The notes under the pieces were generated by a model. It did not search any database. It was not told the DNA's origin and worked only from the letters and a program-made list of their open reading frames with translations. The position numbers and the translations under genes were made by a program. From Vicugna vicugna (taxonomy: Eukaryota), in NCBI GenBank assembly GCA_013265495.1, contig MU057640.1:691303-755302 (forward strand): a DNA stretch of 64,000 nucleotides, in the 5' to 3' direction. Positions 1 to 37,503 of the stretch are shown here, in pieces (within the stretch, counting starts at the first letter, position 1; the number at the start of each line of letters is the position of its first letter).

Positions 1-2978
1 AAAAAGAGGATGAGCAAGGGTCAGTCCTCTGCTTATTTCCCTGGTCATCGTCTGCACCCGTCCCCTGCTCGCCTGCTTCAGAAATCCATAGCATCGGACA
101 GGGATCTAGAGGAGAGTGTGGCTGGACCCAAGCAGCTTGATCACCGTGTCTGAGAAAACACTCAGAGCCCACCCTGTTATTGACTGGGTCAGCGACACCA
201 GTGCCATCTGCCTAAGGCAGCCCGCGGTCGCTCATCAGAGCTGCAGGGTGAGGTTGCAGGGGCCAGCTATTCCCCACATTCATTTCCAAATGGGGTGTGA
301 GGGCTCATCTTGTTTACTGGGCTTGGCTGCGTATAAGCTGGATGTAATTAAAAAAAATTGATCAGGTTTGTGTAGCCTGGCAGGGTACTCAATAAACCTG
401 CTGATTGATGAATTGATGGATAATGGGCATATCCAACAAACAGGCAACATGGGCTGTGAGTTCGCTGGATGCAGGACGATACGTCATCTGGCTTAGCTCT
501 CCACGGAGGGACATACCAGTTTGACTTTGAGAATCCCGATGGCAGGGACCAGAGCTTGTTCAGAAATGGAATTGCTTGGGGCAGTTGGGAAGTCTGCATC
601 TACTTCCCCTTTGCTCTGTTTTTCCCCTTTCTTTCACCCTTCATTTTCAATAGTGAGACGAAACTTCATTTTTTTCCTCCCCATCTTAAAACACACACGC
701 ATGCACATGTGCACACAAAATCTCCCCATCAGCAACCTTATCTGAATCTTCAGATACACTAAACTTAGCCTGCAGCCGGATACATGTATACTGGGCTAAG
801 GATTTTTTAATCAGGTTTTTTAATCTTAATCTTAGAAGGTTTCTGCAAATCACTAAAAGCAGGATGGCTACTCCTCTGGGTGGAGTGGTTTAGGTACAAC
901 CCTAGTTCTAAAGTGCACAGTGACTGCCTTTCCCCTACAGAGCGGGAGGTATCTGTTATCCAGGTGGTCCACCTGGGAATGTCCTTCTCCACGCACGCCT
1001 GAAGGCAGGTGGCATGGGGAAATGCGGAGATGATGAGTCTGGGGGCCTCCTGGTCCATGGGCTCTACCAAACCTCCCCCAGCGATTTTCATCCGTGTCCA
1101 TCCCTGCTCACATGAAAGGCGCCAAGGATGGTTGCTTTCCTCTTGGATGCTGCTTATTGCTGTGGAAACCACACACCAAACCCCAGCTCCTCCCCCCTCC
1201 TCCCATCCCTCCTCCACCAGGGCCACAAGTTACATACCGTGTACCCAAATATCTACATTCCAGGTTTGCCATACATGGCATCTGGGGCTCTGATTTAGCG
1301 GGTGGACATGCAAAAAAGGAATCACTACAGCTTCTGAACAGCAGTCTGTTGCCAGGGCGTGTGTTCAAAGCCCAGAGACAAAGAAGGTGAAGTTTACCAG
1401 GCATCCAAACCCTCATTACGGCTTCATCCCCATTAGTGAGGTCATTTTGGCTGGAGAAGGGGCTGTGGTGGAGGGAGGGTAGTGATTCTATTTCTGGATG
1501 ATTGTGGGTCTGTCTGTTTTAGGTGAATTTGGCCCTGAGGATCCCCACCCTCCACACCTCCCAGTTCTACAGAGCTGGCTGGGCAAGGCTGGGCTGGGAG
1601 GTGCTAATTAATCTTTTCCTGCCTAAATCCTGGAGTTCAGCCTCACAGCTCTGGACTCCAAAGACGGGTCAGAGGCCAGCCCATCAATCCTTCCCCTCCC
1701 CTTCCCCCAGCTGCTTCCATTTCTCAGGGCTTCCTGGATGGAGGTGCAGCTGACCAGCCTGGAGAATGTGCCCTGAGATTGGTCCCGTCCTCTCAGCCAT
1801 CCAGGTGCTGCTCCTCGGCATTTTGGTCTCCCTCTCCCTGCTCCTGCACTCCTGCATTTACCAAATGCCAGTTCTGCTGCTAAAGGAGGTCATGAGAGTT
1901 CAGGTCGGCTGAGGGGCCAACTCAGCCCAGCTGCAATCTGTCCACCAGGCAGTGACCTCCCGGGTGAGGCTGGAAGGTGGTTCCTCATGTAGGACGCAGG
2001 CAAGGCTAGCTGCCTGGCCTCAGGCTTTGGGAAAGAAACCCTGCAATCACACTGGCTCCATAGCTGCCTCTCTTCTGAAGAGCTGAGGTTCTTGTTATTT
2101 TCAGGGATCAAAGTGAAATCTGACAGCGGAGGCAACCGGTGTTCAGAGATGAACTGCCTCAAGGTCTATGCTGCTAGGGGCTTGCTGGGAGCTCCTGAGC
2201 TACCTGCTCTGCCCAGAGAGAGGAGAGCTCTTGCCTGGCACCCTCAAGGGCTCTTTCCTCCTGTTCATCCCCATCCCTGCCTCCAGGATGGATGATTCTA
2301 TAGGAGACACTTGGGAAGGGCTATGATAACTCTGCCTCTGCATGGCATCTTGCATAGTTATGGGGGAAGGCATTTTTTCAGAATGTGAATATATGCTGTT
2401 CCTCAGTGCTGGTCAGTTGGGAACAGATCATGGTGCCAGAAAACTGCAGCCAGCTCAGCCTGAGGCCTTGGCTTAGCTGAGCGAAGCAGCTGAAGGTGGT
2501 TGAAAATGCTATTAGCAGGCAGCCTTTGTCCAAGTGAAAAAATATACAGTGATTAAGAACTGAGCTGCAGAAGGTACATTCCAGAGACACCAAAGCTTTG
2601 CATTCATACAAAGTGCTTTCCCCCTTCAAGACCTTTGGCCAAGTTTAATCCAAAAGAATGTGGGATCCTTCAATTTCATGGACCATGGGCTCAGTGCTGG
2701 GTTCACAAACACCCACACATTCAATTCCCACCCTCTGTCCTGACTAATTGGTTCAGCTCTGCAGCCATCTTGATGGCTAGAAGCCTAGAAGGTGGTCATG
2801 GAATCCTTTGTTTCTAAAAGGAAATGCACAAAAGGAATAGCTCCTCCCTTTTGTGTAGTGCTTCAGGAAAAACCAACATGCTGATTGACATGCCGTGGCT
2901 CTGTGCATCGCACTTCCCGATATTAATCAACAAAGCATGCACCATCTGGGTTCCCAAGAGCTTTTGCCACTTACTTAC

Positions 2979-3005
2979 CTGGGAGACTGATGCTAACCTC
3001 TTTGG
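2979..3005 (-). other. Candidate 27-nt RGS6 microexon
   Basis: cccttctcccag|CCAAAGAGGTTAGCATCAGTCTCCCAG|gtaagt (perfect consensus donor), with TGCATG/GCATG motifs 37-100 nt downstream on the minus strand. Confidence 0.35.
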
Positions 3006-3229
3006 CTGGGAGAAGGGCTGAGGCTCAGAGAGTAGCCCTGGGGGTCAGATGGCATACTGGGGGCAGTGGAGCCAAGTACTAGTGGGTCAGGCAGGACCTT
3101 TTTCAACACTAAGAAGGTAAAGACATCTGAGCTGCTGACGAGGTTTTCTTGCTGATTGGCCCAGATGACCTAAGACCAAAGTTACAGATCTCAGGTCTAC
3201 CAAATCTAAACCCATGCTACTAAGGGGAT

Positions 3230-3408
3230 GGAAATCAACCGTGGTTGCCTCTAGGGGAGAGGGATGGAATTGACTGGAAAGGGAACTTTCTAGGGTGATG
3301 GGGTATAGGTCACACTGCTGCATACATTTGTCAAGTTCATTGAACAAATCATTTCAGACCTATTTATTTTGCCATATGTAATTGAAAAAGAAAAGAAAAA
3401 GAAAAAAG
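3230..3408 (+). mobile_element. Old L1M (L1MC/L1MD-like) 3'-end fragment with A-rich tail
   Basis: gtggttgcctctagggga...ggaattgactggaaagggaactttctagggtgatg...catacatttgtcaagttcattgaac followed by an A-rich run; typical old-L1 3' UTR motifs. Confidence 0.65.
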
Positions 3409-6400
3409 ATGAGGGGAAAAAAATCCAGCTATCACATCTCTGCTGTGAAATTTCCCACCCTGTACTCTTTTTCAGTTGCTGCACCAGCAGCTTTGTCTCT
3501 TGGCTCAGTTCAAATCTTTCCCCTCTGGTTATGGGAGAAACCCAGATTCCTCTGCTAGGGGAGCTAGAACTTTCAATAGAACTAATTTGGAACACAATTT
3601 CCAGTCTTCATCGATCCAACCCGATCACCTTGTGGTGACACACAGGCATTTTTCATCCCTGCTCATGAAGAATGTTTTGCCGAATAGGGCTCCCCGGGCG
3701 ACCTCAGCAGGCAAGAAGCAGGAGGCCCCAGAGATGAGCCGTCCTCTCAAGGAGGCTGAAAGTTCCCTATGAGCAGGTGATGCTCAAGTTAATAAACGAT
3801 GAGTGTGTGTGGAACCACAGGCCTGGGGGGGACCTGCAGGAGGCAGCAGTCAGGCCCCAGGCAAGAGCCAGGGAGAAAGGAAAGGTCCTGGCTGGGGTTT
3901 GTCGGGAGGGGGCAAAGTCCAGGACCTGCCTGACTTCCATCAGGTGGCTTCCCTGGAGGTTGGTGCCCCTTCTCCACCAAGCAAAGTAAAAGGAATGCTT
4001 TCTAAAGGAAGTGCGAGGAGTTCTGTGGCATCTCCTTTTGCAATGCTGCTTAAAACTGGGGAGAGAGTGCCACTTGCTTCGGATAGTTTAGAGGGCTGAG
4101 AAACACTGAAAGGGGATGATAGGAAAATCCATACTTAATACAGAATAATTTCAAAACCCTTCAACTCTCCATCATTCATCACCCATTGTTGAACTTTGTG
4201 AGGCAAGATGGTCAGATGAAATGGGGAAACCAGGCTGTGGGACAAGCCCGCAGTTACACATGGCTGATCCAGGCAGAGCCGGGCTGGAGCAGCACCCCGG
4301 GCATGAGAGGCTGCTCTGGGGGTGGGGAGGGGGAGGGCAGGAGCCCTGTGGCAGGACCCATTCCTGTATTACTGTATTACTCCTGGGTCCTTGCTAAGCT
4401 TTCTGATCTCTCTCAGGAGCTGAAGGGCATTTTCTTTGGTTTTTAAAATATTCTCTTTATTCGACTTTTAAAAAACAGGATACCATAAACATAAAACAAC
4501 CCCTCCCCTCCTGCCCCAAATCAAGAGCTAGGTGAAAATTGAATTAATTTTTGAAAAAGCTCACTGGATGAAGAATTAATATGCATTCAACCTATTTCCA
4601 AAGTAAGGAATGTGATCAAAAACTAAATAATGAATTTTTTTTTTGAAACAGCCCACAGTCTTCTGTACAGTAATATAAAGAATCAGGTTTTGCCACATAC
4701 ATGGTGGGTCAATGGAACCTGCCAGCGGTCATGTCTGCTGAGAGCAATGCCCACAAAATGTCACTGGGACCATGAGCAGGTTCAAATACCTTACTCTAGC
4801 TGGTATTGGCAACTAGCACTGCTTTTTTTTTTTTCACTTAAAAATATTTTTAATTTAGAAGAGGTGACTTGCCAGCCCTCCTATCTGAACTAAATGTGAG
4901 AGGGCCAACCTATCCCCTACCTTCCAGGGACTTTCTCTTTGAATTTCTTATTCCTGGCACAACGGGGTGGCATCGCATCTCATGCACCCTTCCTTCTCAA
5001 GTGCCCTCCTTTTCAACTCGCCTAGACCTTGATGGTGGCAGGGTGGGGATGGTCCCATTACCAGGGACACAGGTTGGCTGCCGAGGACAGTTACTAACAG
5101 TCACCCACTGATGGAATATCGAGCTATTGTGTGTCAAGCACACTAGACATTCAACAGACACCTGTGCTAAGATCCACACCATCTTTGTCTGTTAGGTATT
5201 CCTTTAACCTTCACTGGACACGTGAGGTTGGGTCACTAGCCTGAGCAAGTACCACTGGTCAGCGGCCTTCATGACCCATACACCTTCTGCTTGGTACATG
5301 ACCATCATTTTCAAGGAAGGAGGCAGGTGGAAAGGCTCAGGACTAAGGACTCCTCCACGCTCACCCACACTGGGTGACCTCTCTGGGGCGCACAGGGTGA
5401 TTTTCTCAATGACACTGAGAAAGAAGCTTCAGCTCTTGGACATATTTGAGACCATCCCAGGCATTTCTGCTCTGCCTGTGTTTCCCTTCATCACCTGGGG
5501 GACTCCTGAGAAAGAGAGGATGCTGCCTTCCAGCCAGCGAGCCTGCAAAGTGGACTTTGGCAACTGTGCTGAGCTGAGGCACAGGTCACCACTGCCTGGT
5601 GCTCATGGATTTAAAGTGGTGGCTGCTGGACAGGCCAGTGAAGCCACCACTTCTGTTTGCAGCCCTGTGTTATCGATGCCGATGCCTCTGGGATCTCCTT
5701 AGCAGCAGTCCCAGGAAGGAGAGAAGCAGGTGTGACGTTAACCTGCCTAACTAAGGAGGGGCAGGCAGATGCCTTACTCCAAATAGAACCAACCCCAACT
5801 AGAACCAAGCGTCTAGATCGACCTGGCCGGAGAAGCCCTTCCTGGGAGTTGTTCTTGCCACTTCTGACTCCTGCCCCCCCACCCCACCCCATCTTGCTCA
5901 TCACTCATGGGGCTCTTTGCAAAGTCTGACCTCTGCCTGTATAGTTTTGGCGGGTGACGGAAGACCTTCCTCCATGGTCTCCAGCTGTGCAGGGACAAAT
6001 CTGGAGCCAGGCTGGCATGTTGGGAGCCAGGCTGGCATATTGAGTGCCAGGAGTGAGAAGGGCCCAGCAGCTGGGCCTGACGCTGGCAGCGCACTGCCCG
6101 GGAACACGCCCCCAGACTCCTCTACAAGTTGACGAATCTCTTATCTCCTCCCTCCAGTTCTGACTGAACAGCCTGGTGCTCTTTCTACACTCAGCCTGCA
6201 GCAAGTTCTTGATGGACCCAGGGGTAGAGAGGAGCCAGTGGGCATTTGCTTCCCAAAGCCCCTCAGCAGCATGCCTTCCTGCAGCCCTGCTGTGCTTATC
6301 TCTTCCTCTCCTCCTCCAGTTCCTCCCCAACTGTACTTTGGCATCTCAGCGCTGGTTCACTTTAAATTAGGCAAAGGGCAAAAAGACTCAAGGAAACAGG

Positions 6401-7581
6401 GACATGGCTGAGTTGCTATTGGCAACAACTTGATGTTACTTTTTTCCAACTAGGAAGTTCAGGTGACCCTTGACTATGGCTACAGGGGAGAGCACTGCCA
6501 TTTAGTGGATGAGACAGCAGGAGGAGTCACTCACTTGGCGGTGTGTGATTCTCCTTAGGACCCACGAGGACTCTAACGCCACCCTCCTAAGGGCACTTCT
6601 CACCTCCTGCAAACATGTTCACCCAAAACGTCTCCTGGGTTTGGGTCCTGGGTGAAGCCAGCTGCCAAGGCGCCCAGGCAGTCAACATGCTGACTGCCCC
6701 ACCATTGCCTCAAAGCATGATCTTTCCATGAACATCCGCGTCTATTTGGACTCATACGCAAAAAGGGCTGTCTCATTTCTCTTCCCACCCCACTATCAGG
6801 AATGCAGTCTGGCAGGCATTTATCAGACATGTATTTCTAACCTGAAAAAGTACAGCACTTCCCGGGAAGTGCACAGGAGCCCTGAGAAACTGGCCACAGG
6901 GCAGAACAGGCAGGGGACAGGTCAAGCCGCATTTTTCAAAACCTCTCTGGACAGAAACTAGGGCTGATGGAATTCCTCACTGCAGAGAACCTTCTTACTT
7001 CCCTATAAACCCTCTTCACCTGTCGCTGCAGCGCTTTCCACCCCTATGGACTGGGGATGGGCGGTTCCTTAGCCCTCTTCCCCCGGGGGTGGTCTAGCAG
7101 GTAGAAATGTGAGATTTCCGTTTCTCACAGGACTTGGCCCTGGGCCACAGAGGATGAGTAGGGGAAGCTGTGGCTGGGAGATGAAGCCTCAGGACGCTGC
7201 TTGCTGTTGGATTTAAAAGCATCTTCAAAGGTAGTGGGCATTTCTGCTAGATGTCCAGGAGACGTGAGTTACGGGGTCCACACCTAAAGGCATTATTTGT
7301 ACATTGCCTCTAAGACTCAACTCAGCATCATTTCTGGACCCCTCAGCTTCTTGTTTCTTAGGAAGGACAAACTATGGGTGTAAAAACAATCAGGCAGGAA
7401 AAAATGGGGACACCAAAAAATGGGTGCCTCTGGCTGTCCATGGAATGAGGGTGTGACAACAGGAGTGGTGGGCAGAGATGAGGCCACGGACAGACAGATC
7501 ACCTCTTCTGGTTTTTGGAGCGCCTTCTGTGCAGAAGGGTCCCAAAGAAGGTTAGAGAGTGTGGACGCCGGGATCACTCAC

Positions 7582-7648
7582 CCACTGCTGGAAGGAAGCC
7601 ACCTCGGGGGTGAAATGCAGCGGCCATTCTGACTCTGCGCCAGCAGCA
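7582..7648 (-). CDS. RGS6: Candidate RGS6 frame-shifting cassette exon (67 nt, 3n+1), possibly the brain-type alternative exon
   Basis: cttcacttcccttcctaaaaacacaattgcctag|TGC TGC TGG CGC AGA GTC AGA ATG GCC GCT GCA TTT CAC CCC CGA GGT GGC TTC CTT CCA GCA GTG G|gtgagt. Phase-0 translation CCWRRVRMAAAFHPRGGFLPAV+G; no stop codon in any of the three frames. Usage is inferred, not observed. Confidence 0.7.
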
Positions 7649-8859
7649 CTAGGCAATTGTGTTTTTAGGAAGGGAAGTGAAGAGTAACTTATCCAGCTGA
7701 AACCATGAAGACCTGTGGCTTTCGGGGAGCCCCTGCGCAGACACGCACACAGCTGCAGCAGGCAGGCAGTCCATGCGCAGAGGCACGTGCAGTCTGCAGC
7801 GTATGTTACGGGCGTACCAGACACTGAACACAGAGGCGTATACCAGGCAGGCAGCACATGCACCTGTGTATGCAGCTGTGCACACTTTCATGTGCACGTT
7901 TACACCGCAGGCACCTACATAAGCATCTCATGCAAGGTTCATAAGCAACCATATGATTGGCTGTAGAGCTTTCCATCAGGCTCCTAAGGTGCCAGTCTTT
8001 GACAAACACTGCAAACTTAAAGCATTTATCTTAGAGACATATATAAACCTGACTTTCCCCAGGAAAAAGCTATTCGTGTCAGTGACAATGGCCTCTCTGT
8101 TTCTGTTTCTGTCAATACTACAAGCAGTGGGAGCGTGCGCCCCAGGGGGCTGGTTTACGAGGGATTTCAAAGCACTCCCTGCCACTTGGCTCTGACTCCT
8201 CCAACAACCCCACTTTGTAGTATGTGCTTAAAAAATAGAAGCCTCTGTTTATCCGGCAGATGGAGTGACTGGACTTGGTGAGGTTGTATTGCTCAGGGGA
8301 GTTCCAGGCAGGTAGCCAGCTGAGAGGTGAGGGTTTCTGGGAATGAGGCTTCTGTCATGCAGAGCAGTACCTCTGGAGGATTGGATTTCATGCTCTTATA
8401 GGGGAGGACCATCTTTGACATGTGCCTGGAAATAGGAGGCATCTTAGTGGGGCATATGTATTGCCTCGGTGGCCCTCCCCACATCCTGGCACCATGCTGC
8501 CACAATCCCCCAGCTCCTGCAGCTTCCCAGGAAGTGCATAGGAGCCCTGAGAAACTGACCACAGGGCAGAAGCTGATCTGCCAGCACCACAGTCCCCTCA
8601 TTCCCAAGGAAGACAGAGAAACTGGCTCTCTGAGTTGATTTTAAAAATAAGTCGGTAATAATAGCTACCATTTATCAAGAAGTTCCATGAGTAATACATG
8701 AATGTGCTCTGCACACTGTTGTGTATGAGATACCCACGCCCCCATCCTCAACTGCAAAATAAATACAAAAATACCTATCGAAAAATACTGTTGGAAATTA
8801 AATAAGGTAATAAGCGCTAAGCACGGCCTGCAGGTCACATCATGATAATGAAAATAATA

Positions 8860-9030
8860 ATACAAAGTTATATTTGAGCACACTGCAAACACTGTGCTAA
8901 GCACCTTACGTATTTCTTCCCACTTAATCATTTACTCTTATCTCCCCTTTACAGATGAGGGAACCGAGGCTTGGAGGCACTGCGCGAGCCACACAGGTAA
9001 GTGGTGGAGCTGGAGTAGAGCCAAAGTCCC
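8860..9030 (-). mobile_element. MIR SINE remnant
   Basis: actgtgctaagcaccttac...cccctttacagatgagggaaccgaggc...cacacaggtaagtggtggagctgg is the reverse complement of the MIR core. Confidence 0.75.
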
Positions 9031-9783
9031 TCTTGGGCCAAGCTCCATGTAACGTGGGTGCCCACAGTGCGATGCTGGGAGCCTCCGAGGAATTGGCGCT
9101 GTTCTTGCTGTGCCCTCATTGAGTGCTGACCTCCACCTGGAACCGTGGGCTTCATCATACCATTGGATGTGTGAGCAACTCGCCTGGGGTCTTATACCAA
9201 TGTCAGGTGGAAAAAGAGTATTCAACTGGGGCTGTCCATCCCTAACCCGGAGCCCACTTCCCACATTCTGGTGGGCACTGAAGGGGTGTTGTTCTCAGGG
9301 GCAGAGCCAGCAGGTCGTCTTCAGTAGGGGATGCGAATGCAGTTGGGAGAAATCTCGCGGCCAGGTTTTCGACAACACTTAACCTTGAATGGTTGGTGCT
9401 ACTCATCACATCCTCAGAGAGTGGGCTCCCGACAGGATAAGGAGCAGTGTGAATGGCTCAGGGCAGTCAGCTGCCAGGGGCCAGCCGGAGCCCCGCAAAA
9501 CAGCCTCCTGCCAGGGCAAGGTGAACCTCACTGTGCAGACATCTGTGTAGCCTTGGGGAGGATGGAAAGGATGGGGACCCTGACATCAAACCTGCACAGA
9601 GATGCTGAAGTGCAGGCTGGGGGCTCTGGTGGCCACCACCCCACCTGCACACCATCCTGGTAATCCCTCTTATAATGTCCTCCATGTCTAGAAACAATTC
9701 AGGGACGCTCTGATTGAGGGCTAGCAAAGGATGGGCTCTGAAGCTGCATCGTTACCAAGGATACAGCCATTGAGTATGTGCAC

Positions 9784-9877
9784 GGGGGAGGATATAGCTC
9801 AGTGGTAGAGTGCATGCCTACTATGCATGAGGTCCTGGGTTCAATTCCCAGCGCCTCCATTAAATAAATAAATAAAA
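9784..9877 (+). mobile_element. tRNA-Ala-derived SINE (Vic-1-like, camelid)
   Basis: ggggaggatatagctcagtggtagagtgcatgcctactatgcatgaggtcctgggttcaattcccagcgcctcca with pol III A box (TAGCTCAGTGG) and B box (GGTTCAATTCC), then a (TAAA)n tail. Confidence 0.85.
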
Positions 9878-11329
9878 TCATTAACTTGCTCACAGGATGG
9901 TGACAACTCACAAATGCATCCTATACATATTTAGAATTATGGATCCCCTGGAACCTCCCAGTATCATCCAGGTCAGAGAATCCACCAGAATCTCCCTTCT
10001 ACTTTTGCCTCAGATGATAAGGTTGAGTTGAGTTTTGTACTGGCTACTCCAATTCCCCACTTAATCTGCCGTCATATAGAAGCCAGGCCCTGTATCCTTG
10101 CTTGAAGGTCTGTCTTTTCCCATTAGGCACTGGGGTTCGGGTGCACCATACTCTTGGTGCAAACAAGGAAGGCCAGGGGCACGGTGTAAAGCAGCTCTCC
10201 AGCCCTGTGAAAAAGTATGGGCACCCTTGGGGTCCCCCGGCCCACCTCTCCCCTACCTCTTATATCCGAACACCAACCACACCTGACAGAGATTTAAGGG
10301 ACTGCATGAGGGAACATAGTAACAATCGTCTCTGACTGGGCTTTCTTTAGCTTACAAAAATGCCTTCTTAAAACTTTGCTGACTTTATCGGCATCACCAT
10401 GTTTAATGAGAGGCCTCAAAAAATTTGAAAGCCAGAGATGAGGAGAGGAAAAAAGCCGCAGGCTGTAATCACTGTGATTACACAACTGCACGATGAGTTG
10501 AAGGCAGCCCTGGTGAAGCCCGGGAGGGGAGGCAGGGCCATTTGCCATCAGGTCGGTCCTCAGGACAGCTGGAAGGAATGTGACACAGGAGCCCTTCCCT
10601 TGGCCCGAGTTGGGCTGAAGATGAGCCCTCAAGGCAGGGCCGGAGGAGAGGGGGCCCCGGGAGCGCAGCTCCTTCTTGGTCTCGTGTCTCAGGGGGCGTG
10701 TGCTTCTCCTAGCCAGGCTGAGACAGTTTGGGCGGCAGCTTGTCCACCTGGACTCTGCACTGGCATCGGGTAAAAGGCACCTAGCTTGGTCATCTTTTTT
10801 GCTTTCACAAAACACCTTTTCTGGATGGGAAGGATGACAGGCCAGGCTCTCTCCAACGCAGAGCCAGGGTGCCACCGCCGCCCCCGTGCCAACCCTGGCT
10901 GCGCTCAGCCCTCTGCGCCACAGCTGCTCGGCTTCCCTGCACCAGCAGGCACCGGCGTCCTCCGCCCACTGCCATCCTCCCAGACATTCAGGGGACAGAG
11001 CCCTGTCGCCCAGGGTTCAGCTGCAGCAGCAACATCCAAGGGCTTAAAAAAACCAAAACAAAAACCCAAACCAAAAGGCCAGGATGGCATGTGAAGGGCA
11101 GTAATTCCACTTCTTGACAGTGGACTTGCTTTGACTTCGTCATAATCTGGCTTTTTCTTCCTCAAGGCAGAGTCTAATCTGACCCCTTTGGCTCCCTCTC
11201 CTCCCATCTCAGCAAACTCCCTCCGTGTCCATTCTTTTTTTTTTTTTCCCATAGCTTATTTATAAGCCATCTGATAAAATGCAGTAGGATCCATTTAACA
11301 TATATTTAATGCATCAGAAGATTCCAGTT

Positions 11330-12240
11330 GGAAGAGGTGATGGAATCTGATGCAGAAAACTGCTCTACAATATTGGATATTCGGCTTCTGAGCGTTTCCA
11401 AGGAGCTCTTTTCTCCTCGAGGTGACACTTTCCACTGCTGGGAAGTTACTATTGTTAGAATATTCTTAGAGAGAGACCCTCCCCACATCTTCTACCCGTT
11501 TGTTCCAGCTTCGTCTGGGACAATCCAAAACTGTCCACTCACCCTAGGAGACAAACACCGATACGTCTCCTGGGGGTTATTGAATCTGGGTAGGAACTAG
11601 ACAGCTTCATCTATTTCAGTCTCATCAGACATGGCTTCCAGAGTCCCCAGCTGTTTTTTCCTGAATTTCCTCTAGTTTGTTGAAGTTCCTGATAAAATGT
11701 GGGAGCTTAGAACCAAGACTCAACACTGTCTAGAGCAACACAGAGAACAGCGGAAACTGTCTCTCTTCTGACCATTCCACTTTTGTGATTACAACCTAAG
11801 GCTGCTTAAAAAAAAAAGTGATTGCATCTCACTTTTGCTTCTACTAAACTTGCAATCAATCACAACCCCAGATTTTTTTTTTTTTACTTGAATCCAGTGA
11901 AGGCTGGGAATGCTACCCTGTAGTTGTGAGACTGAACCTTTTTTTTTTTTAAATAAACTTTATCTGGTTAAATCATACCTTTGGTTGATTTGGACCTGTC
12001 ATTCCACCTGAAGAAGATGACTTTTCAATATACATCCATTACCTATCAAGTGAGCAATACCTTCCAGGTTTGCATCTTTGAATGTGACTGGCATGTTGTC
12101 TCTTCATCTGAGTCATCAAAAGGATGCTGGATAAGACAGGGCTGTGGCTGGACCCTTGTGGCCACAACCAGAGACTGCCTTTCCCATTAACACAGATCTA
12201 TTAATTCACCCTCTTACTAGCCATCAGGATGTGGTGAATA
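11330..12240 (-). mobile_element. CR1/L3 LINE remnant (reverse-transcriptase region)
   Basis: ggcatgttgtctcttcatctgagtcatcaaaaggatgctggataagacagggc...gaccc is a degraded reverse complement of the CR1 RT motif (GP.LFNIFINDLD); also the L3-type gttactattgttagaa...ttctacccgtttgttc stretch. Confidence 0.6.
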
Positions 12241-15200
12241 TACTTGCTTTAACAATAACTATGGGCAAACGTTGAGGCAGTGGAGGTGGAGGGAGTATGG
12301 GGGGCAGGAATGGATATGGTTTTCAACCTTATCACACTGATATCTGGTAACAAATAAATATTTTCTGGAGCAGGGGATGTAGTTAGGATGGTAATCTCCC
12401 TACAGTAAAGCAGGCTTACAAGAAGGGTGTGGAGTTCCTGCAATTATTACACCAATGAGGCCCATCCCTGTCTGGGGCTCTGGTACCATCGCTCAGGCCA
12501 GAATGATTGGACTGTGACTGGGGGTCATTTTGGATGCTGCGACTGCCAGGGTAGCTGCCCACTCCCAGCCCCGCCCCCCATCCGCCGGGAGCCGGCAAAC
12601 CAACCCCCAAGGTCTTTCTCTCGTCAGCCTTCAAGTGACATCACTAAACTGAAGGTCCCACCGCTCTGAGCTCCATTCAACTCCTCTGCAGCGTCCCAGC
12701 TAGCATTCTGCTCCACCCACAGCAACATTTTATAGTGTTCCTACCTACGAATTTCTATCCTGCCCTCCTTCCAGAAAGCCACACTTCCCAAACTCGATCT
12801 GAACCAAAGATGCACATCTGCTGCCTAAAAACAAGAAAGACTCCTGTGTTGTTTTCACCAGGAGCTCATTTTGGGGGGAAGCCATGGCCACCTTGCTTCT
12901 CAGCCTTCGAAATCCTTAGACCTTGAGTTCTCTGGCTTCTAACCCTCCAGTCTGGACGCAGACAGAGTTGGGTCTCATCTCCCTGAACTCGACATTGGCA
13001 GCTTGGTCTCCTTCCTAGGTTCCTGCTGTTCCAAAGCCTGACTAACGCCTGGAGGGTTCTCTCCTGCCCCCTGAGGCAGGTCGCTGATCCCCTGGCAGGT
13101 CCCAGGCGGATTCTGTCCTCTGCAGAAGCAGGCATCTGTTCCCCTGAGGGGTCTGCACTTGCTGCTGTTCATCCTGCTGAGGGCCCCAAGGTCACCTTCA
13201 CCCTCTGCCTTCTCCTGGACAGATGGGAGCCCTCAGCCATTTGCGCGTGGCTGCCTGGGGACAGGTGCCAGAAATCTGACTATACAAGTGACAAGGAACA
13301 GGCTGAAATCCCACAAACCCATCAGCCACTTCTAAAGTGAGAGCTTCTTCTAAAAGGGCGTCTTTCTGAGTGGAGGGTGGGAGGACGGCTCTGTTACGGC
13401 CAAGGGCTGCAGGTCAGCTCCCGAAATAGATTCCCGCCTGGCGCATCCATCCACGGTGTGCCCCTGGCCTGCCTTAGGGGAGACTGGCAAGGATGCGATT
13501 TGGATCTGAATCAGTGGCTGTAAACACACAGCTGTGCCTTTCTGCCTCACAGGAGTTTTTCACTTGACTGCTCGGCACATGGGGGTCTGGGGAAGGCAGG
13601 AGAGGGCCAGGGTAGGGGCGAGGGAGAGCTGGTGAGAGGAGGAGGGAGCAGTCTTGCAGAGCCTAGCTGTCCCCTGTGTCAGGCGGCTGAGTCACCGTGG
13701 CATTTTTCCTCCAAGTGGGCACTCTGCTGGGAGGGCATTTCTGGCTGCTTTTGGTTGACAGGTTGAACCATCAGCTGCAACAGCTGGGGGTTCCTCCTTC
13801 CGAGGGAAGCGGCAGGGTCCAAGGCTGGGCTTCTCAAAAATGACAACCTCTGACTTTTTTTGATAGATAAAAATCTCACCTTTTCCCAGAGTTTCAGAAA
13901 GACCTCTCCCCTCCAACCCCTGCCATGGAGAATCACTTTATCTCTTTTGTCTTCTCTGTACCCCACTAGCCAAGCTGCCTGGGCTGTCTTACACTTTACA
14001 GTTGGTTTGTAGAAAATAATAGACTTTTACATTTTCATTTTCCAGCTACAAAATCATACTATATTAAATAGGCTTTTTCAGACTTCACTTGGACCCAAAA
14101 TGGAGAGAGAAAGAGAGAGACCAGAGGAGACTTAACCTGCCACTGACTGTAGCCAGGATAACACGCTCTCTCGTGACCTCTTTTTGGTCATTTCTAAGAG
14201 AGGACAGAAGCAAGCTGGCCCAGAGCTCTCCAGGGAACCGGAAAGTGTGTTAGCAGGTGAGCAGCAGAGCAGCAGAATGGTGCTGAGTCCCCAAATGCTC
14301 GCAGTTCATTTCTTCCCACGCCCCACAGGACGGGGCGGTGCAACGGCACCCGCTCTGGAGCCCGCCCCTCGGCCAGCTGACCGCGCTCCCACCTTCTGAC
14401 ACACACCCTGCCTTCTGCGGGTCGGGGTGTGTGGTGCTTACCCTGTTCTTTGTGACCTCTCCCTCCCTGCGCTCCAGGGGTCACAGTGTACGATAAGCCC
14501 CGAGGGGCAATCGGAGGGACCAGGGCTGGGGCAGGAAAGGGGCCGGTGGGAAAGGGGGGAGGTGCCTGCGGCACTTTTAGTGCTGCCAGGGCTTTACCCT
14601 CAAATCCTGTGATTTTAAATAAACACCCAGCTCAGTTCTATCCATGGTTTACTTCCCAGCCTCAAAGATAGGCAGCCACTTCTCCAGCAGGAAGGCAGCC
14701 CCTCTCATTCTGAGGGCTGATTAGCACAACCTGAAAATCTCAGGATCAACAGAAGCGCGGATCTCAGAACACCCCCACTGAAAGGGTCCACAGAGGTGAC
14801 CTAGCCCAAGCCACCGTGCACAGGAGAGAACCAGGGCTCAGGGAGGGCTAGCGCGTGCCTGAGGTCACGCTGCTGGCAAGCTGAGGCTGGAGGCAGGCAG
14901 GACCCGCTCTGCACGGGTTGCTGAGGAGTGCCACAGGGTCCCAGGGGAAGTCCTTCCTGCTCCGGAGGCAAATTTCCCTGTGTTCCCTCCCCTACACTGC
15001 TAGGGAATCTACCTCCATCTCTAGGCAGGCCCGGGTCTCATGAATGCTAGATCTCAGGGCTCTGAGATGGGAGAGGCTGGCACTGCAGTCCATGACCCAG
15101 TAGTCCCAAGGGGATCCAAGGACTGTTTGCAATCAAAACCGACTCTAGAGATTTTTAGTGATCATTCCTTGCTGGAGGCCCGAAAGGATTTTTTTTCAAC

Positions 15201-18200
15201 TGAGGTCAAAGCTCCCTGGGGGCTCTGCTGAGTCTAGGTATTTGAAAACTCTTTTGGCCGGGAGAGCAGGCCTGCTGAGGGGGAGGGGAAACTAGCCCCT
15301 GGGGGAAGGCGCTGCTCTGCAGAGGGCTGAGTGCCCGCCCTGGTTGCCCCGCTTGCCAGGAGTCTCCGGCTTCACTTCCGGGTCAGCAACTGGGCCTGGA
15401 GCTGGGGGTTCCTCCTGGCAGAGCGGCCTGGAAGGGGGTGAGCTGCCGATTTTTCACTCTCATTAGCTTTTCCGTGGCTTTTGGAGAGGGAGGAGGGGGA
15501 GAGGGAGGGTGGGTGACAGCTGGCTCCCAGAGCTTCCTGGTCTCCATCTGACTTCCCTGCTGCATTCCTTGGCAGGCAGGACAGAAACACTTGTGGCGGA
15601 AATGCCGCTCGGCACATGCCAGGGCTCCCTCAGTTCCGGGCCCTCGCTGTTCCAATTCCGAGGAGCACCTTGACAAAGCCCAGCTGTGATATGAGGCTCT
15701 CTTACGAGGGGGACGAACACCTGGTCCCCATCTCTGCTCTCCCCTGGGGCCTCCAGCTCTTGCTCTGGCACCAGCGACCCCATTTCCCATCTTGCGAGCC
15801 TGAGCTACATTTGATGCATGAGGCTCTCAAGAGGACAGTTGGGGCTTCAGCCGGGCACCCGGTAAAGGTGTCTGGGGAAGCTGATGCCACCATCACTCGG
15901 GGCTGCCACTTCTCCTAACTTAAGTGCTGTCCCTCCAGGGAACTGGACACAAGATGCAGAGGACATTTTCTAGCTTCCCCTCCCCAGCTTGGAGTTCTCA
16001 CCCGACGGCTTCGGCTGCCGTCTGAAAAGGGACAATCAGGTTGCTGCTAGTGAGCCAGGCATCCCCTGTCCTGTACGTCAGGGTCACCCGGGTGAGGCCC
16101 TCCTCCCTTTGTAGTAGAGCAGAAGAAATGAGCAGCCTCAGAGACAGCAGGGAGCCAGGGGCCTTTCAGCTCTGCCTGCTCTCCTACCCTTATTGTCATC
16201 TGTCAACCGCAAAACCAGGAAGACGGCCCAGAATGGCAGGCTGGTCAGCCCTGAGCAGGAGGAAGTGGTCTTGAGTTAAAGTCCCCTCCTCCCCACAGCC
16301 AGTAACACCTGGGACCTCCCTCCAGAGAGTCTGAAGAGGAGACAGAAGATGGTGCAAAGGCCACCCACAGGTGTTTCCCATCATGGCTTTCAGATTTTAC
16401 AGCCACTGTGAAAGGAAGCTTCCCAGTGGACAGGGCTAGGGAGAGACAGGCTCTGTTCATTTGACCTGAGGCCATGTCTGCGGCCCCCCTTGAGATGTTG
16501 CTATGTGTTACAGCTCTTCCTGTGTTTGGGGCTCCTTGGACCAGGGGCACCGTGTACAGTGGTATGAGCTGTCCACTGCACAACGGCAGCTGAGGGTCAA
16601 GGGGGGGCTGAAATCCAGTCTGCCTTTTGCTTGGCCAGCTGGGCATCTGTGAGGCTGGGCCCATCAAAGGGAGTTCCATTTTCTCACTCTGAATAAAGGT
16701 GCAACTCTCAGTGAGTTGCACCATGCCATGGGCTTTCAGTGATGTTTGCTTCTGAGCCTCGGCCTTCCTCATCAAACAAGCGGGGCTTTACAGAAGCTCT
16801 GTGGCTCCAGGCGACCAAACGATACAACGCTTAGCATAGCATATCCCCTGGCATTTGCTCTAATATTCAAGTTCTGGGTGACTCAGCTTGCATTGGAGGG
16901 GGCAGTTCACACAGCAACACCTCTGTTGGGAATCGGAAGGCTCCCTCTGCATCCAAATTAGCATGGCCCCCGCAGCTTCCAGGAACTACAATGAACTACT
17001 CCCCAGGATCTCATGTAAAAGGCGGGCATCTGTGGCCTTCACAGGTAATCCCTCCATATCATGGTACACCTGAGACTTGGAAAGAACAATTTGCTTTCTC
17101 CAAATGTTCCTCCTTTACCCAGGAAAGAAAGAACATTGGCATGGGAGAAATTCTGGATTCAGATTCAGTTTTGATAAGAAGTTAGCTGACTGAGATAACC
17201 AACCATCTGGATCAATATTTCCTGCCACCAGTGAGTTCTAAATGGCAGCTGGCCTCACGTTCTTGGGCCATGGACGGCCCAGCTTCGCTCCCTCATTGTT
17301 CCATTATTAGCCCCATGATACGAGTGGTCTTTTTACACATATTTCCCAGCACCATGAGAATGCTATTGAACTAGCCTTTCACTGAGTTTTATATTTTGCA
17401 GTATGTAGCAGATGAAAGGTCATGTAGACCTTCTTTTAGAGAAATCAAGCACTTTATGCCTATTATATTCAGAAAATGATTATCAAATTGCAAGGCATTG
17501 TGCTTCGCTGGTTAATTCTGTTTGATTAGGACACTGGACTGTGGAGACCAAGTTCTGGGGTTCCAGCCTCAGGTCTCTGAGAGCTGCTACTGTTCTACAG
17601 CCATGGGGCATTTCCTCAAATTCAGCCAGGGAAGTGGTCTTACCCCCAAGAGCACAGGGAGCATGGATGGATCAATACAAATCCATCTCCATCTCCACCG
17701 CTGGAAACAAAAACTCAGAACACAGCACCCATTAAAGTCTTCATAGAAAAATAGCAGGGAATTCAGGAATTTTTTTGTTTTGAAGTTTGGGCTTTCTCTC
17801 ATATAGATTCTAAAAATCTCAGGAGCTTGAGAGATTTTTCTCCTTCAGCCGGCCCTGAAAACATCTCTGTAAGTTCTCCCATGTGTACACTTCAGACACT
17901 TGGAAGGTGTCTGAAGCTTTCTCATTCCAAACACTTTGTTAACAGACCTTGGAGGACCACTGAACCAACACTACTCCGGGGATGAAGGGACATCAATAAA
18001 TGCTCTTCACAGAGCGTCATCGAGATTGCACTCGCTTTCCCAATACCCGTGTCTCATGAAAAGCAGCCTGGAGATGTTTGGGTGGCTCATCCTGGTTCCA
18101 GACTTCCTCTCTCACAACCTCAGCCCATGCAGTCAACCTGAAGGGCCTTCCCAGGGCTGCAGGAGGTCTGCTTTTTCCACAGTACACTACGGGCTTGTCA

Positions 18201-19148
18201 ACAAAATCCCTAAACACCCTCCACCCACAGCCTCCGGGCCTCAAGAGAGACAGGAAGGGGTGGGTTCCCACCACTCTCTACCAGCCATCGGGGGTGGGGG
18301 GTGGGAACTCCCGTTGGTCTTGCCTCTAACAATCTGTGGCAGCTTCCTGGTGTGTGAAGCCACTTGACCATGGCAAACCAGCTATGTAGACAGACAGGTG
18401 ACCCACAGGCCTTATGTTCTGCAAGCTCTGATTTCTCATGAGAAAAGATCATAGAGAGTAAAGACCAAAGAAGAGAAGTCATGAGTACCCATATTTTAAT
18501 TGCCACCTACTAGTGTTCCTGTGATGTTTAGATCTAGCAAATTCAAAATAATGTTTAAATTCAGTTAAAATGCATCTAGCCATGAAAGAAAAATGACTAG
18601 GTTGCTTCCAACCCAGAATTCTTGGAATTTATGTTAAAAGGATGAAATAAAGATACTAATCACACAGTAGTCAGGTTCACAAGGACTTTCCTCTTCAACA
18701 GAGGGAGGAAAAAGGCAAGTAGCATCTGTGGGTTTCCACCTTTCGGGAAGGGACATCTGGCCAGTTCCATGCATGGGACCCCTGCTCCCTGGCTGCCATG
18801 TTGGTTTGCACTGGTTTGATGTGAAAAGTGAACAGTGAACAGTGCCGACTGGACCCATGAGCACAAGATGCTTGTTTTTGATGAGTGAGTGAATGAGCAG
18901 GACTGAGTACTTCCTGTACACCAAGCCCCATGCCCCAATCTTACAGAGAACATCGTGGGAAGAGGACCTGGGTCTGTGCTGTTCTGGTGGCCACAGTACA
19001 GAATCCCCCCCCCCCCACGTGCACCGCGGGGAAGACCTACCCACGGCTACTCCACCCCGTGGCTACCGCCCTCCTCTCCCTGTCACGCTATGCAAATGAG
19101 GCTGACAAGGGGCTGTCAGGGGTGCTGGAACTTATGCAGAGGCCACTA

Positions 19149-19186
19149 ACACACACACGCACACGCACGCACGCGCACACGCACGC
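19149..19186. repeat. Compound (AC)n/(ACGC)n microsatellite
   Basis: acacacacacgcacacgcacgcacgcgcacacgcacgc. Confidence 0.85.
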
Positions 19187-19659
19187 TAGCTAGCCCGCAT
19201 TGCCAGACCCATGCAGCACGGCCACTTTCTGCACACGCAAAAGCCACCTGCACAGCAGCACCAGCGCGCCTCCCGCATCTGCGTGGTTGCCAGGGTTCTT
19301 GGAGGGAAATTTGCAATTTTGTTTTTTTTTAGATGAGCTATGGTCTGAGCCAATTTATTTTATGGTCCAGTGTGATGGCCTTCTGCCTGGGCTGCTGCAG
19401 AAGATGCACAAACCACGCAGCCCCAAGGGCAAAGGGGGAGTCCTTCTTCCTCAGGGTCCCCGAGCAGAAGATCAAATGCCAGGCCTGAGGCTGGGTGGTC
19501 CCCTGTGCACCTTCTGCAGAGGGAGCCGCTCTGTCTTTTGCAAATCCATCCCTAGGAGAGAAGCTGCGGACACTCGCAAAAGGCCGGTGTGTTGAGGGAA
19601 AAGCACTGGATTCCCTCCCCCCTCAAATGAAAGGACAACGACAACAACAAAAAACTGGT

Positions 19660-19660
19660 A

Positions 19661-19692
<32 letters not shown>

Positions 19693-19702
19693 CCCAAAAA
19701 AA
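19660..19702. repeat. Poly(A) tract (poly-U in the RGS6 pre-mRNA just downstream of exon 17)
   Basis: About 32 nt of near-pure A followed by cccaaaaaaa. Confidence 0.9.
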
Positions 19703-19717
19703 CCCAGCTGAACTTAC

Positions 19718-19771
19718 CACACTGCGAGTGAACTTTTCTAAGGAAGTTCTACGACCTTGCTCACTTTCTGG
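19718..19771 (-). CDS. RGS6: RGS6 alternatively spliced 54-nt exon (exon 17), phase 0-0
   Basis: ttttttccccctaaag|CCA GAA AGT GAG CAA GGT CGT AGA ACT TCC TTA GAA AAG TTC ACT CGC AGT GTG|gtaagt = PESEQGRRTSLEKFTRSV, the known 18-aa insert that distinguishes RGS6 alpha1 from alpha2 tails. Confidence 0.96.
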
Positions 19772-20838
19772 CTTTAGGGGGAAAAAAAGATAGGGAGAAA
19801 AATACAGAAAAAAAAATCTTCAGCTTACACGTGGTTTCCCAAGAGCAGCAGCGGCAGCTAATGAACCGAAACAAAAGCAAAACAGGGCGGAAAAAAAAGA
19901 AGGAGAAAGAGAAGCAGCCGGCGCTGTATGTGCGAGTCAGCGGGAGAGACAGGAGGCGGGAGAGACGGGAGACGGGAGCCCACGACACGTGGCGCTGCCT
20001 CCCTGGAGCAGTGAGGAGACAGGGGGCTTTGCTTCTCGAAGGGCCAGCTCCAGGGCTGGAGTCAGAGCCACCTGGCTTTGAGCCCAGCCACACTCAGCAG
20101 TTTTGAGCAGCCTGCTCAACTTGCTTTTGACCGGCCGAGCCCCCGGGCAGGAGCCCCGGGGCTGTGTCCATGAGGCTTCAGGCAGCCAACTGGGGTTCCC
20201 AGTGGGGGACACAGAACAGGCCAGCTCCCAGAGCCGTGGGGTGTGTGGGGGTGCTGCTGGGAGTCAGGAAGTTGTCGTGGGCGGGGTGACGTCATCAGGT
20301 CCCCCAGGAGTCTGGGTTAGAACTTCCCCTGAGATTTGCCTGCCTAGATGCCACCAGAAAGTTTGCTAACCTCAGTGACTTCCCAGTGGCCCCTTAATGA
20401 CTCTCATTCTGTGTCCTTAGAGCAAGGAGGCTCTACTCATGTCTTTCGCCATGACAGACGAAGGTCTTGGGTCTCAGAAGGAGTGTTCCGGACCAAAAAT
20501 GTTCTCTCGGTTCTCAGGCAGTGACCCCTTCGAGGTTTACTCCTGGTAGGTGACAGGAGGCTCAGGAGCATCCCGAGGACTCTTAGCTGAGGGGTCCCAG
20601 CACAGGGGCAAGAGGAGGCAAAGCCCTGGTCACCCCTCTTCCCCAGGCCCAGCTGCTTTCCTCCACTGGAGGAAGGGGGGTGTGGTGTGCACGTGACCCT
20701 CTCCCCAAGTTTTCTGCTTTTCCAGGAGGGGAGATAATCACATCCCAAGTACCTGCTAGCTTATCCCAGAGCCGGGAACCAGGGTCCTGCATCCATGACT
20801 GGGAGCTTTGGAGAGCATACGCACTCACATGGGCACAT

Positions 20839-20867: not shown

Positions 20868-23419
20868 AGCAAGTAATGGAGATTAGAGAGCTGAAGAAGC
20901 AGCCAGATGTCTGTGGGTCGGCAGGATGTGCTGGAAGATGGGAAAAAGCGACACAAAGGACACAGCGCCGCAGAGCCAGGCTGGTCTTTCTCCCGCAGGC
21001 ACATGGGCTGAGGGATCTGCTCTCGGCCCTGGGCACCATACCAAGTCTCCACTCTGGGGACGGCAGATCTCAGCTTCAATCCAGGGGGAAGCCCCAGGGG
21101 GCGCACACGTGGCTCAAGTCAGGCCAGGCCGAGGCCCTGCAGCTAGCCTTCTGCTGTGTCTAGCATCTCGTCCCCTGCTACTGAGGCGCTGCTCCTAGAG
21201 AGCGGGCCGACGGCCTGACTCTTCCTGCCTTGACCGGGCCCTCCGAGCCGCCCTGGAAAATCATACTTAAGTACTGGTACTTAAGTGTTCTGGAGGGGCC
21301 CTCCAAACCCAGCTTACCTGCCCGTGAGAACCTGGTTGTCAGAATGACTAACCTTCTCTCTGAAAATCTGAGGATAGAGGATGCATGAGGGATGAAAGAG
21401 CAGAAGGCTGAGCCTCCGGACTCCATCAGGAGCCTTCCTTCCACAGAAAAGCCAGGCCAATTCACCTTCCCCTCCCTTAGCCGGACCTGGTGGCTCCCAT
21501 CCCTTTATGACCTGGACATCTAGATCACATGATAAGCCCATCCCTGAGATCGGAAAACACGCTAGGCCTACCTGGAAGTGCCGAGTTACAAGTCCAGTCC
21601 ACGCCTGGAGACTCTCAGGGAGAAACGGAAGAAAAGGTAGGCTTGTCACTGCTTCTGAAAACAGCCCCTGGATACTGAAAGGGTGTGGCCACCTGCAAGA
21701 GCTTTCTGCTGCAAGAACACCCCTTCCGTCATGCGGGGCTGGGAGGAGGATGCTAGGGAACTTCCTCCATGACATTTCACAGAAGGCCGTCCACCCATTC
21801 CTTCCTCCGTCATCTCTGAGAAGTTTTCATCCTATGGGAGGACCTGCAGGCAGGTATCTCAGCCCCAATCCCAGCCCTGGGGGGCATTTTCTGTTCTTGT
21901 TCAAACCCACAAGGAGACTGAACGGCCGCTAGCTTCTTCTGGGCGTCTGGACAGGCCTAGATGGGTCAGACTGCTGGAGCCTCACAACTTCCCCACACCG
22001 GGATCAGTTCAGGGTCTTGAGCCGCAAGAAATAAGGAACACTTACTTTGACCTTCTCCCCTGAGATCTGGGCTAGAGGTACCCAAAGTCCCCACAACCTT
22101 TCTTAGTAAAATGAGCATCAGAGCCATTATTTGCGGGGACGTCAGCCTGCTCCATCCTCCTGCAAGGGAGCCGGTTGGAGGCCAGGCTTCACATTTCCCA
22201 TCGTAGTAGTGACACCTGATGGAAGGGATGCAGACTACCGTGAAAGCTGGGTTTCTGACAGTCTGGGTGTTCCCAGACTTCTCTTTCTCAGACTATCCTG
22301 GATGTCCTCAAAACTAAGGGTAAGTGAGCAGGATAGAAATGCTCTTCTAGACTCTGGAGTGATGCAGTACCAGCCAGATACGCAGACAGGATCCTGGCAC
22401 GGGGGGTGGACAGTACACAGAAAGAAGCCTGCGTGGCCGAGAGAGGTAGCCCGACAGACAGCGTGTCGCTAGACAACCACATGCTTAGGGACTGCTGCTG
22501 GAGGCCGCGAAGGGGAAGAGAGGGATGCACGTGCCCCTAAGCAGCATGGCACGAGAGTCCCAGAACGTGGTGCCAGGAGAGCCACATTTAACCACACATG
22601 GGCCTTGGATCAGAACCAAGACGTGCAGAGGGTTTGCAGGCACACTGCGACCATGAGCCAGCCCTCCTGCCTCGCCTTTCCCAGACCCCTGGCCCCTCCC
22701 AGCTCTTCCTCCCCTCCCCTCCTCACCTTGCTTCAGTCACCCCTCATCGCCTGCACACTGAGGGTCCCTGCACCCCCCAAATCCAGACATCAAAGGCTGC
22801 AGGGAACCATGACTTCACTCAGAGTGGAGGAGGAGGAGGGGGCTAGGATGCAGTTACTTCTTGGTTAAACGAAAGGGCAAACGCTGTGGGGGTGGAGAGG
22901 GACAGGAAGTGGGGAACAATCCCAAGAATGACTTCTGGCACCAGATCACCCCCCGGACACCTAAAGGCTTTCTTTCCAGAGGGGGCTGCCCGAATCCCTG
23001 CCTCATACTCATGTCTGAGCTGGTCGGGGAGAGAAAGTCTGTGGGGAGGGGGCTAGAGTCTGCAGCGAGCAGCTCTCTCTGGTTTCCTAGGGGACTCGCT
23101 GGTGTCGCTGCCAGCCCTGTACTCGTGGGCTGAGCCACTGTGGCCTTAAGGTTTGGTCACACTCCCACTGTGGGCAGAACATGCAGGTGGAGGTAATGGC
23201 TACGGGGAGACAGGAGGCCCCACCCTGGACCTCGGGAGTGGGCTGGGGCAGTGACAGCCCTAATTGTCTCCCACTGGAGTGGGAGCAGGTACGAAAGGAA
23301 AGAAGAAAAGAGAAATGAAATAAAACCCAACGGATGATATTCTCATTTCACACCAGCAGCAAGCAGCAGGCAGAGGTCAACAGCGCTAAGGAAGGTGAGG
23401 CCGCCCTTCCCAGAGATAC

Positions 23420-23509
23420 CTTCTTCTTGGCCAGCAGCAAGTCCTGGTAAGCGTTGGACCGGAGGAAGCGGGCATAGCTGTCACTCTTCATCAGCTTGTA
23501 GATGTGCTC
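23420..23509 (-). CDS. RGS6: RGS6 internal exon (exon 16), end of the RGS domain; 90 nt, phase 0-0
   Basis: ccttcccag|GAG CAC ATC...AAG AAG AAG|gtatct. Translates [30 protein letters not shown], containing the RGS-box M..DSY.RF motif; seen in ORF 23348..23653. Confidence 0.98.
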
Positions 23510-23859
23510 CTGGGAAGGGAGGGGGCGGGGAGACAAGGAAGAGCTGTCAACCGACAGGGAAGGGGACTGCAACCCAGCTGGCCACTGGGAAGGGCTGGGG
23601 AAGAAACAAGTGAACCAAAGCATCCTGTATGTACCTGGAAAAATCTGTAACATGTGTGCTTTGTTTTGTTTTTGTTTTTTTGTTTTTGTTTTTTTTTCCC
23701 ACTCAGAAACACCAGCCCAAACCTATTTTCTCTCTTAGAGTGAAAGAGCCTCGAGGACAGGTCCCAGAGGCTTTGTAATCGGGCTTTGTGCCATGCTGGG
23801 ATGCGGTATTGCTTAGTGCTTAAAACCAGAGGCACAGAAATAAGAAGGAAGAAACTATC

Positions 23860-37316: not shown

Positions 37317-37503
37317 CTGGGCATCTTCGAATGTGTATCTCCCACCATCCTTGACGTTCTGACTGGTTATCTCGTAGCTGTGAGAATCCAGGTTGATTGC
37401 ACTTGGGGCCCCTGGAGCCAGAAACTCCTGCCAGATTTCTTCCACCCTCTTGGCCACATCCTGTAGGGGTTGTTTCTTGAGATCTTGGACAGCCAACCAG
37501 AAC
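37317..37503 (-). CDS. RGS6: RGS6 internal exon (exon 15), RGS domain core; 187 nt, phase 2-0
   Basis: ccatttcag|G TTC TGG TTG GCT...GCC CAG|gtttgc. Translates (R)[62 protein letters not shown], visible in ORF 37194..37496. Confidence 0.98.

Follow-up and report, generated by a model that had tools for sequence, protein, structure and literature searches.

The window analyzed here, a 64,000-nt stretch of Vicugna vicugna DNA (G000:C571:691303-755302), contains on its minus strand a 67-nt interval (7582..7648) that is very probably a real, deeply conserved optional exon of RGS6, the orthologue of exon A3, whose inclusion would put the terminal exon into a different reading frame. The match to A3 rests on position, frame effect and residue numbers, and not on a letter-by-letter comparison with the published exon. 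The phenomenon itself is already known: exon A3 has been cloned, it is annotated in human and mouse, and its frame shift and product have been described. The additions made here are an intact coding capacity in this genome, a sauropsid form of the exon that is two codons shorter and still frame-shifting, the absence of RRRSTS from three bird tails, and a double cysteine that opens the exon and is invariant in the forms compared.

The cassette consists of 22 codons and one base. Its first frame encodes CCWRRVRMAAAFHPRGGFLPAV plus one spare G, and both translation and length agree with what an earlier, sequence-only reading of the window had reported. On the minus strand the context reads ctcttcacttcccttcctaaaaacacaattgcctag/TGCTGCTGGCGC...CCAGCAGTGG/gtgagtgatcc (acceptor side, exon ends and donor side), with the exon starting ctcttcacttcccttcctaaaaacacaattgcctag/TGCTGCTGGCGCAGAGTCAGAATGGCC after the acceptor and its edges at cctag/TGCTGC and GTGG/gtgagt. 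The absence of a stop in any frame, also part of that reading, is confirmed by three stop-to-stop ORFs (7552..7887, 7578..7664 and 7574..7648), all of which span the cassette. The 5′ splice site, GTGAGT behind an exon-final GG (7576..7581, minus strand), is near consensus; if this donor were unused, the frame would end in ...AVGE and a stop, as it does in bat protein P0144. The 3′ splice region (7649..7690, minus strand) comprises an AG at 7650-7649, an A-rich gap and, judged by eye, a pyrimidine tract ~18-34 nt upstream of the AG. No second AG occurs for ~40 nt upstream, and the pyrimidine fraction over positions -40 to -3 is 0.68. The interval had been described as having a good acceptor and a strong donor; the donor and the acceptor AG stand, but "good" is generous for an acceptor whose AG is real yet not strong by eye, with a distant tract and an A-rich gap in between.

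Copies of GCATG lie 128, 213 and 285 nt upstream of the cassette acceptor, the latter two as TGCATG (window 7649-8050, minus strand), while none is found within 400 nt downstream of the cassette; the strand background is ~1 GCATG per kb. The upstream copies could be Rbfox-type sites for a neural exon.

The peptide encoded by the cassette is carried by 46 database RGS6 proteins, and in 31 of them it is identical, letter for letter, to that of the window. At the protein level the identical peptides include those of human, macaque, rat and other rodents, and the carriers as a whole extend over primates, rodents, lagomorphs, tree shrew, bats, carnivores, perissodactyls, a bovid, a whale, a mole, afrotherians, a marsupial, an alligator and birds. 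The 18-residue exon precedes the cassette peptide in 45 of the 46, whereas in Rhinolophus P0149 the cassette follows ...LLAKKK with nothing in between; splicing after either exon 17 or exon 16 had been proposed, and both arrangements are thus represented.

Several searches contributed to this set. The ORF around the 18-residue exon, compared with longer proteins, gave 165 matches at E ≤ 10 among 173 candidates; in the best 120 of these 165, which are mostly RGS6, the cassette peptide appears in 16 (12 identical, 4 with one substitution), placed directly after ...FTRSV and followed by GKV...VTVKEKE. A region search with the cassette and tail of P0093 compared 344 candidates and found 33 at E ≤ 1; four of these 33 (gibbon P0075, lynx P0132, woodrat P0133 and human P0134) reach the same tail via other upstream sequence. 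Between them, the ORF and region searches gathered 29 proteins with the cassette peptide, all after ...TRSV. The cluster of macaque P0125 has 309 members, of which 40 were read and 15 listed; all 14 listed members besides P0125 carry the peptide and 11 of them end in VTVKEKE, the other three deviating after the cassette (P0144 stops at ...AVGE through donor read-through, and P0145 and P0146 diverge later). A profile built from four tails scored the 7999 candidates sharing most words and found 41 proteins at E ≤ 1, adding three sauropsid-type forms (two birds and one further protein); no amphibian or fish form with the CCW peptide was found among these candidates. In two fish proteins, P0037 and P0097, unrelated sequence leads into the terminal exon read in the shifted frame; these were not counted, their resemblance being forced by frame-0 conservation.

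We measured how far the splice signals themselves depart from chance by counting intervals of 40-150 nt that run from AG to GTRAGT, are open in three frames and have an upstream pyrimidine fraction of at least 0.6. Three such intervals occur on the minus strand of the window and none on the plus strand; 20 block shuffles of the minus strand yielded 1.25 on average (range 0-5). The splice-like signals of the cassette alone are therefore not more than chance, and a rate so close to that of shuffled sequence is what one would see if AG and GTGAGT had been paired fortuitously around a stop-free stretch. The conservation of the peptide across database RGS6 proteins led us to reject such a pairing: with 31 of 46 peptides identical across mammals, and with recognizable forms in alligator and birds, it has next to no probability. 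The cassette exon stands above chance because its peptide is conserved in the RGS6 proteins of other species, and not because of its splice signals.

A search of the assembly that contains the window, with the tail of an RGS6 isoform from a serow (Capricornis) as query, located the terminal exon in the same contig. One match stands out, covering C571:690338-690502 of the minus strand without a stop (E 1.8e-26; 93% identical to the Capricornis sequence), the remaining five having E values of 0.18 or worse. By this match the RGS6 terminal exon begins at G000:C571:690501 (L001:1664) and extends downwards on the minus strand; its start lies 801 nt past the first base of the window, with the boundary sequence ...ctgtctctgcag/GGAAAGTCGCTGGCGGGC.... 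The exon opens with GGAAAGTCGCTG, and frame 0 reads GKSLAGKRLTGLMQSS with a stop after 16 codons, which are the exon start and normal reading that the sequence-only reading had assigned to a terminal exon outside the window. With the cassette's spare G in front of it, the exon instead reads GKVAGGQAPHRPDAVLLTVPPAGPGPEDHAGRRRRSTSADRVALRGDLVTVKEKE up to a stop, with 55 codons open and no early stop, so the proposal that the extra base bypasses the normal stop and gives a long alternative tail is borne out. The intron's last base is the same letter as the spare G, so contiguous translation from L001:1665 reproduces the spliced reading. The third frame of the exon reads ESRWRASASPA and then stops.

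With the cassette included, the C-terminal end grows from 16 residues to 77 (net +61), and the shifted-frame stop is the second TGA, 116 nt past the normal stop. The shifted tail in this genome has the outline GKVAGGQAPHRPDAVLL...RRRRSTS...VTVKEKE. The tail string given in the sequence-only reading matches it except at the 11th residue, where this genome has R and the earlier string G; primate tails likewise have G here, and the proline/glycine linker of this genome is shorter than theirs. The predicted join of cassette to shifted terminal exon is also the one seen in annotated RGS6 isoforms of many amniotes.

Annotated isoforms together use all three frames of the terminal exon start, and those frames are open in this genome too. 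In horse RGS6 P0060, a different exon upstream leads into the second frame of the cassette (VLLAQSQNGRC...), and the terminal exon is then taken in the third frame (ES.WRASASPA and a stop); the corresponding positions are 7582-7648 of the window and L001:1628-1664, both on the minus strand.

The sauropsid proteins bear most directly on the frame shift. In alligator P0135 and in birds P0136, P0152 and P0153, the cassette peptide is CCWR(R/C)MAAA..., 20 residues as against 22 and without "VR", and these forms continue in the shifted frame as GKVSG.QAPH.PDAVLLT.... The sauropsid exon is two whole codons shorter yet keeps the shifted tail, and its length is therefore still 3n+1; a length other than 3n+1 in orthologues had been named as counting against the exon, and it is not what these proteins imply. 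The first 17 tail residues overlap conserved frame-0 coding and are therefore conserved anyway. Beyond the normal stop, mammals keep RRRSTS.DR.SLRGDLVTVKEKE with the stop at the same place, the far end RRRSTS..LRGDLVTVKEKE is kept, and this conservation cannot be explained by frame 0 because frame 0 has already ended. The proline/glycine linker in the middle of the tail varies in length, with all length differences in frame. The alligator tail keeps ...STSAED..VTVREKE, and the three bird tails are divergent, ending ...GEWVPAGERA without the RRRSTS cluster. Protein comparison points to selection acting on the shift itself as well as on the frame read after it, and the frame-shifting device appears to predate the mammal-sauropsid split.

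Exon A3 and its product have been described in a bioRxiv preprint (10.64898/2026.05.08.723811, 12 May 2026), cited here and below from the available part of its text. There, A3 was cloned from human brain cDNA and alters the frame of terminal exon alpha to give RGS6B, or RGS6L-A3-alpha1(+GGL), for which RefSeq NM_001370273 is cited. The exon is reported as highly conserved, with mouse and human nearly identical, and its transcripts as mostly confined to CNS tissue. Expressed A3 protein co-migrates with ~69 kDa RGS6B, which is depleted from mouse astrocytes when A3 is targeted by RNA interference. The RGS6B tail has no known domain, was modelled as unstructured and carries RRRRSTS at residues 530-536. 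The available part of an eNeuro article (PMC8805202) describes RGS6B as a brain-specific band that reacts with antibodies against the N-terminus and against exon 18. Macaque P0125 (553 aa) has the cassette peptide at residues 475-496 and RRRRSTS at 530-536, as for published RGS6B, and these residue numbers, together with position and frame effect, lead us to identify the window interval as A3. The "larger brain-specific RGS6 isoform" from a novel 3′ exon, which the sequence-only reading had named, turns out to be RGS6B, made by exon A3.

The cassette resembles human and mouse A3 in its place, with the 18-residue exon before it and the alpha/beta terminal exon, here outside the window, after it, and it shares with A3 and RGS6B the same frame change of exon alpha and an extended, domain-free C-terminus with RRRRSTS. 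The match in this animal is known from sequence, whereas the tissue restriction and the ~69 kDa protein are published features of human and mouse. The same intron region of RGS6 also contains A1, A2 and theta, which, like earlier-cloned alternative terminal exons, alter the C-terminus; unlike A3, they are described in the available preprint text (10.64898/2026.05.08.723811) as poorly conserved and largely restricted to humans and higher primates. RGS9-1 and RGS9-2 offer a further parallel drawn there, as R7-family splice forms that differ in an unstructured C-terminal extension tied to R7BP-dependent stability. The likeness is one of description, and that text does not present the RGS9 tail as the result of reading a common terminal exon in another frame.

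The published experiments also weigh on a different account of the conservation, namely that the interval has a non-coding role, as an intronic regulatory element or an RNA, with its open frames incidental and the annotated isoforms artefacts of prediction. The supporting proteins are mostly automatic gene predictions (XP_ and similar), able to copy one another's models, and a 67-nt interval open in all three frames makes openness uninformative; both points fit that account. It does not sit well with a sauropsid form that differs by exactly two codons and keeps the frame shift, nor with tails whose length differences stay in frame and whose far end is conserved past the normal stop. A scan of window positions 1..20000 against Rfam placed no family over the cassette exon, the sole match being a tRNA-like element at 9788-9859. 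The cloning of A3 out of human brain cDNA, the co-migration of its protein with RGS6B and the depletion of RGS6B by A3 RNA interference, as given in the available text of 10.64898/2026.05.08.723811, count against that account too. We regard a purely non-coding role as very improbable and, given the A3 knock-down, as largely refuted.

In the coding interpretation, which we favor, the cassette would be an optional exon between the 18-codon exon and terminal exon alpha, and its inclusion would add 22 codons (CCWRRVRMAAAFHPRGGFLPAV) and one leftover base. The leftover base would cause the terminal exon to be read one base out of register, so that the stop after GKSLAGKRLTGLMQSS would be passed and 55 further codons read to the second TGA. 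Stops in the last exon, by the usual rule, escape nonsense-mediated decay; both the frame-0 and the shifted stop sit in the last exon, and nonsense-mediated decay would therefore not be expected.

The full coding capacity for such a product is intact in this genome. It may still be that the cassette, although conserved and splice-competent elsewhere, is unused or used at noise level in this animal, with no RGS6B-like protein made. The pyrimidine tract far from the acceptor AG would fit with this, as would the lack of a camelid protein with the cassette peptide among the matches listed (best 120 of 165 from the ORF search; 15 of 309 from the P0125 cluster; matches of the region and profile searches). 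Acceptor and donor, the 22 codons and the entire 55-codon shifted frame are all preserved here, and the peptide is identical to that of 31 other proteins, which makes such disuse unlikely. We infer that the published properties of RGS6B, as a nervous-system isoform with its own stability and dominant-negative action, hold in this animal too.

RGS6 has repeatedly been linked to neuropsychiatric and neurological traits. In the available text of 10.64898/2026.05.08.723811, RGS6B is longer-lived than RGS6L and better at stabilising R7BP, cannot oppose G-alpha-i/o signalling and interferes with RGS6L in a dominant-negative manner. RGS6B is presented there as the first RGS protein form to promote, and not damp, G-protein signalling, which makes exon A3 biologically important; the structural basis of its lost GAP activity is stated in that text to be unknown. 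Pfam assigned no family to the shifted tail and placed the RGS domain at residues 336-450 of macaque P0125. An AlphaFold2 model of full-length P0125, computed with a 26-sequence alignment, had a mean pLDDT of 36 and a pTM of 0.19, too low to read a fold from it, and a complex prediction between the P0125 RGS domain (330-456) and the cassette plus tail (475-553) gave a score of 0.00, with the fold of the partner uncertain, which speaks neither for nor against docking of the tail.

The cassette peptide starts CCWRRVR, with two adjacent cysteines next to basic residues. In the alignment of 26 proteins, C475, C476, W477 and R478 are invariant (26/26), and an exon-initial CCW(R/C)R is common to the mammal, marsupial, alligator and bird forms in a four-lineage alignment. 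A CCW start was required by the filter in part of the peptide tally (the region set and part of the P0125 cluster), and the invariance therefore rests on the unfiltered matches and on these two alignments. The sequence-only reading had suggested a palmitoylation or membrane-anchoring motif. R7BP, the membrane anchor of the RGS complex, is palmitoylated on a double cysteine beside a polybasic stretch, as described in the available part of PMC2171691, and the two proteins of the same complex thus both have adjacent cysteines beside basic residues. In R7BP, however, the basic stretch comes first and the cysteines lie four residues from the C-terminus (PMC2171691, same part), whereas in the cassette the CC comes first, with a W behind it and no more than three arginines within five residues. 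The motif is not at the extreme C-terminus of the shifted product but internal, 77 residues from the end. The available text of 10.64898/2026.05.08.723811 does not mention palmitoylation and does not discuss the exon-initial double cysteine. By analogy with R7BP, CCW(R/C)R might be a palmitoylated, arginine-assisted membrane anchor that mimics R7BP's and does more than space out a frame shift, an idea we consider doubtful. If it were true, tethering to the membrane could lock the RGS domain in one unproductive orientation, or the motif could compete with R7BP, and either might explain the loss of GAP activity and the dominant-negative action of RGS6B.

The remaining RGS6 exons place the cassette within the gene. 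The 18-codon alternative exon PESEQGRRTSLEKFTRSV (19718..19771, minus strand) was recognized from sequence and database proteins; it is phase 0 at both ends, has the donor gtaagt and lies ~12 kb upstream of the cassette in gene orientation. It is exon 18 by the preprint's numbering and exon 17 in the sequence-only reading. By tblastn, the last RGS-domain exon, which ends ...LLLAKKK, maps to approximately 23375..23515. Matches to database RGS6 proteins locate, with approximate limits, a further RGS-domain exon at 37317..37511 (65 residues matched, 94-97% identity) and two more coding exons at 44920..45048 (43 residues matched) and 53418..53528 (37 residues matched), all on the minus strand.

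Other alternative ends are suggested around the 18-residue exon. The stretch 18294-18434 (minus strand) matches, at 64% identity across 47 residues, an additional exon of gibbon P0075, human P0134 and lynx P0132; that exon likewise runs into the shifted GKVAGGQ... tail. Read from 18434 to 18294, the window stretch has an open frame and an AG acceptor is present, and there is no GT at the donor place matching the exon of P0075, P0134 and P0132. Just downstream of the 18-residue exon, an alternative exon at 19358-19572 (minus strand) matches the "CLQLL..." tails of horse and deer-mouse isoforms; in this genome, judged by eye, a TAG follows six codons of the CLQLL frame, giving a very short tail. 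A run of ~43 T on the minus strand (19660-19702) sits directly behind the donor of the 18-residue exon.

The tRNA-like element lies in the intron at 9787-9859 on the plus strand (Rfam tRNA, 50 bits; called by ARAGORN as tRNA-Ser with anticodon ACT) and is probably a tRNA-derived repeat or pseudogene. Weak matches on the minus strand at 8115-8374, 3779-4015 and 816-920 correspond to odd C-terminal tails of single predicted isoforms from bat (P0050), elephant seal (P0120) and Przewalski's horse (P0119), and may represent species-specific or mispredicted terminal exons.
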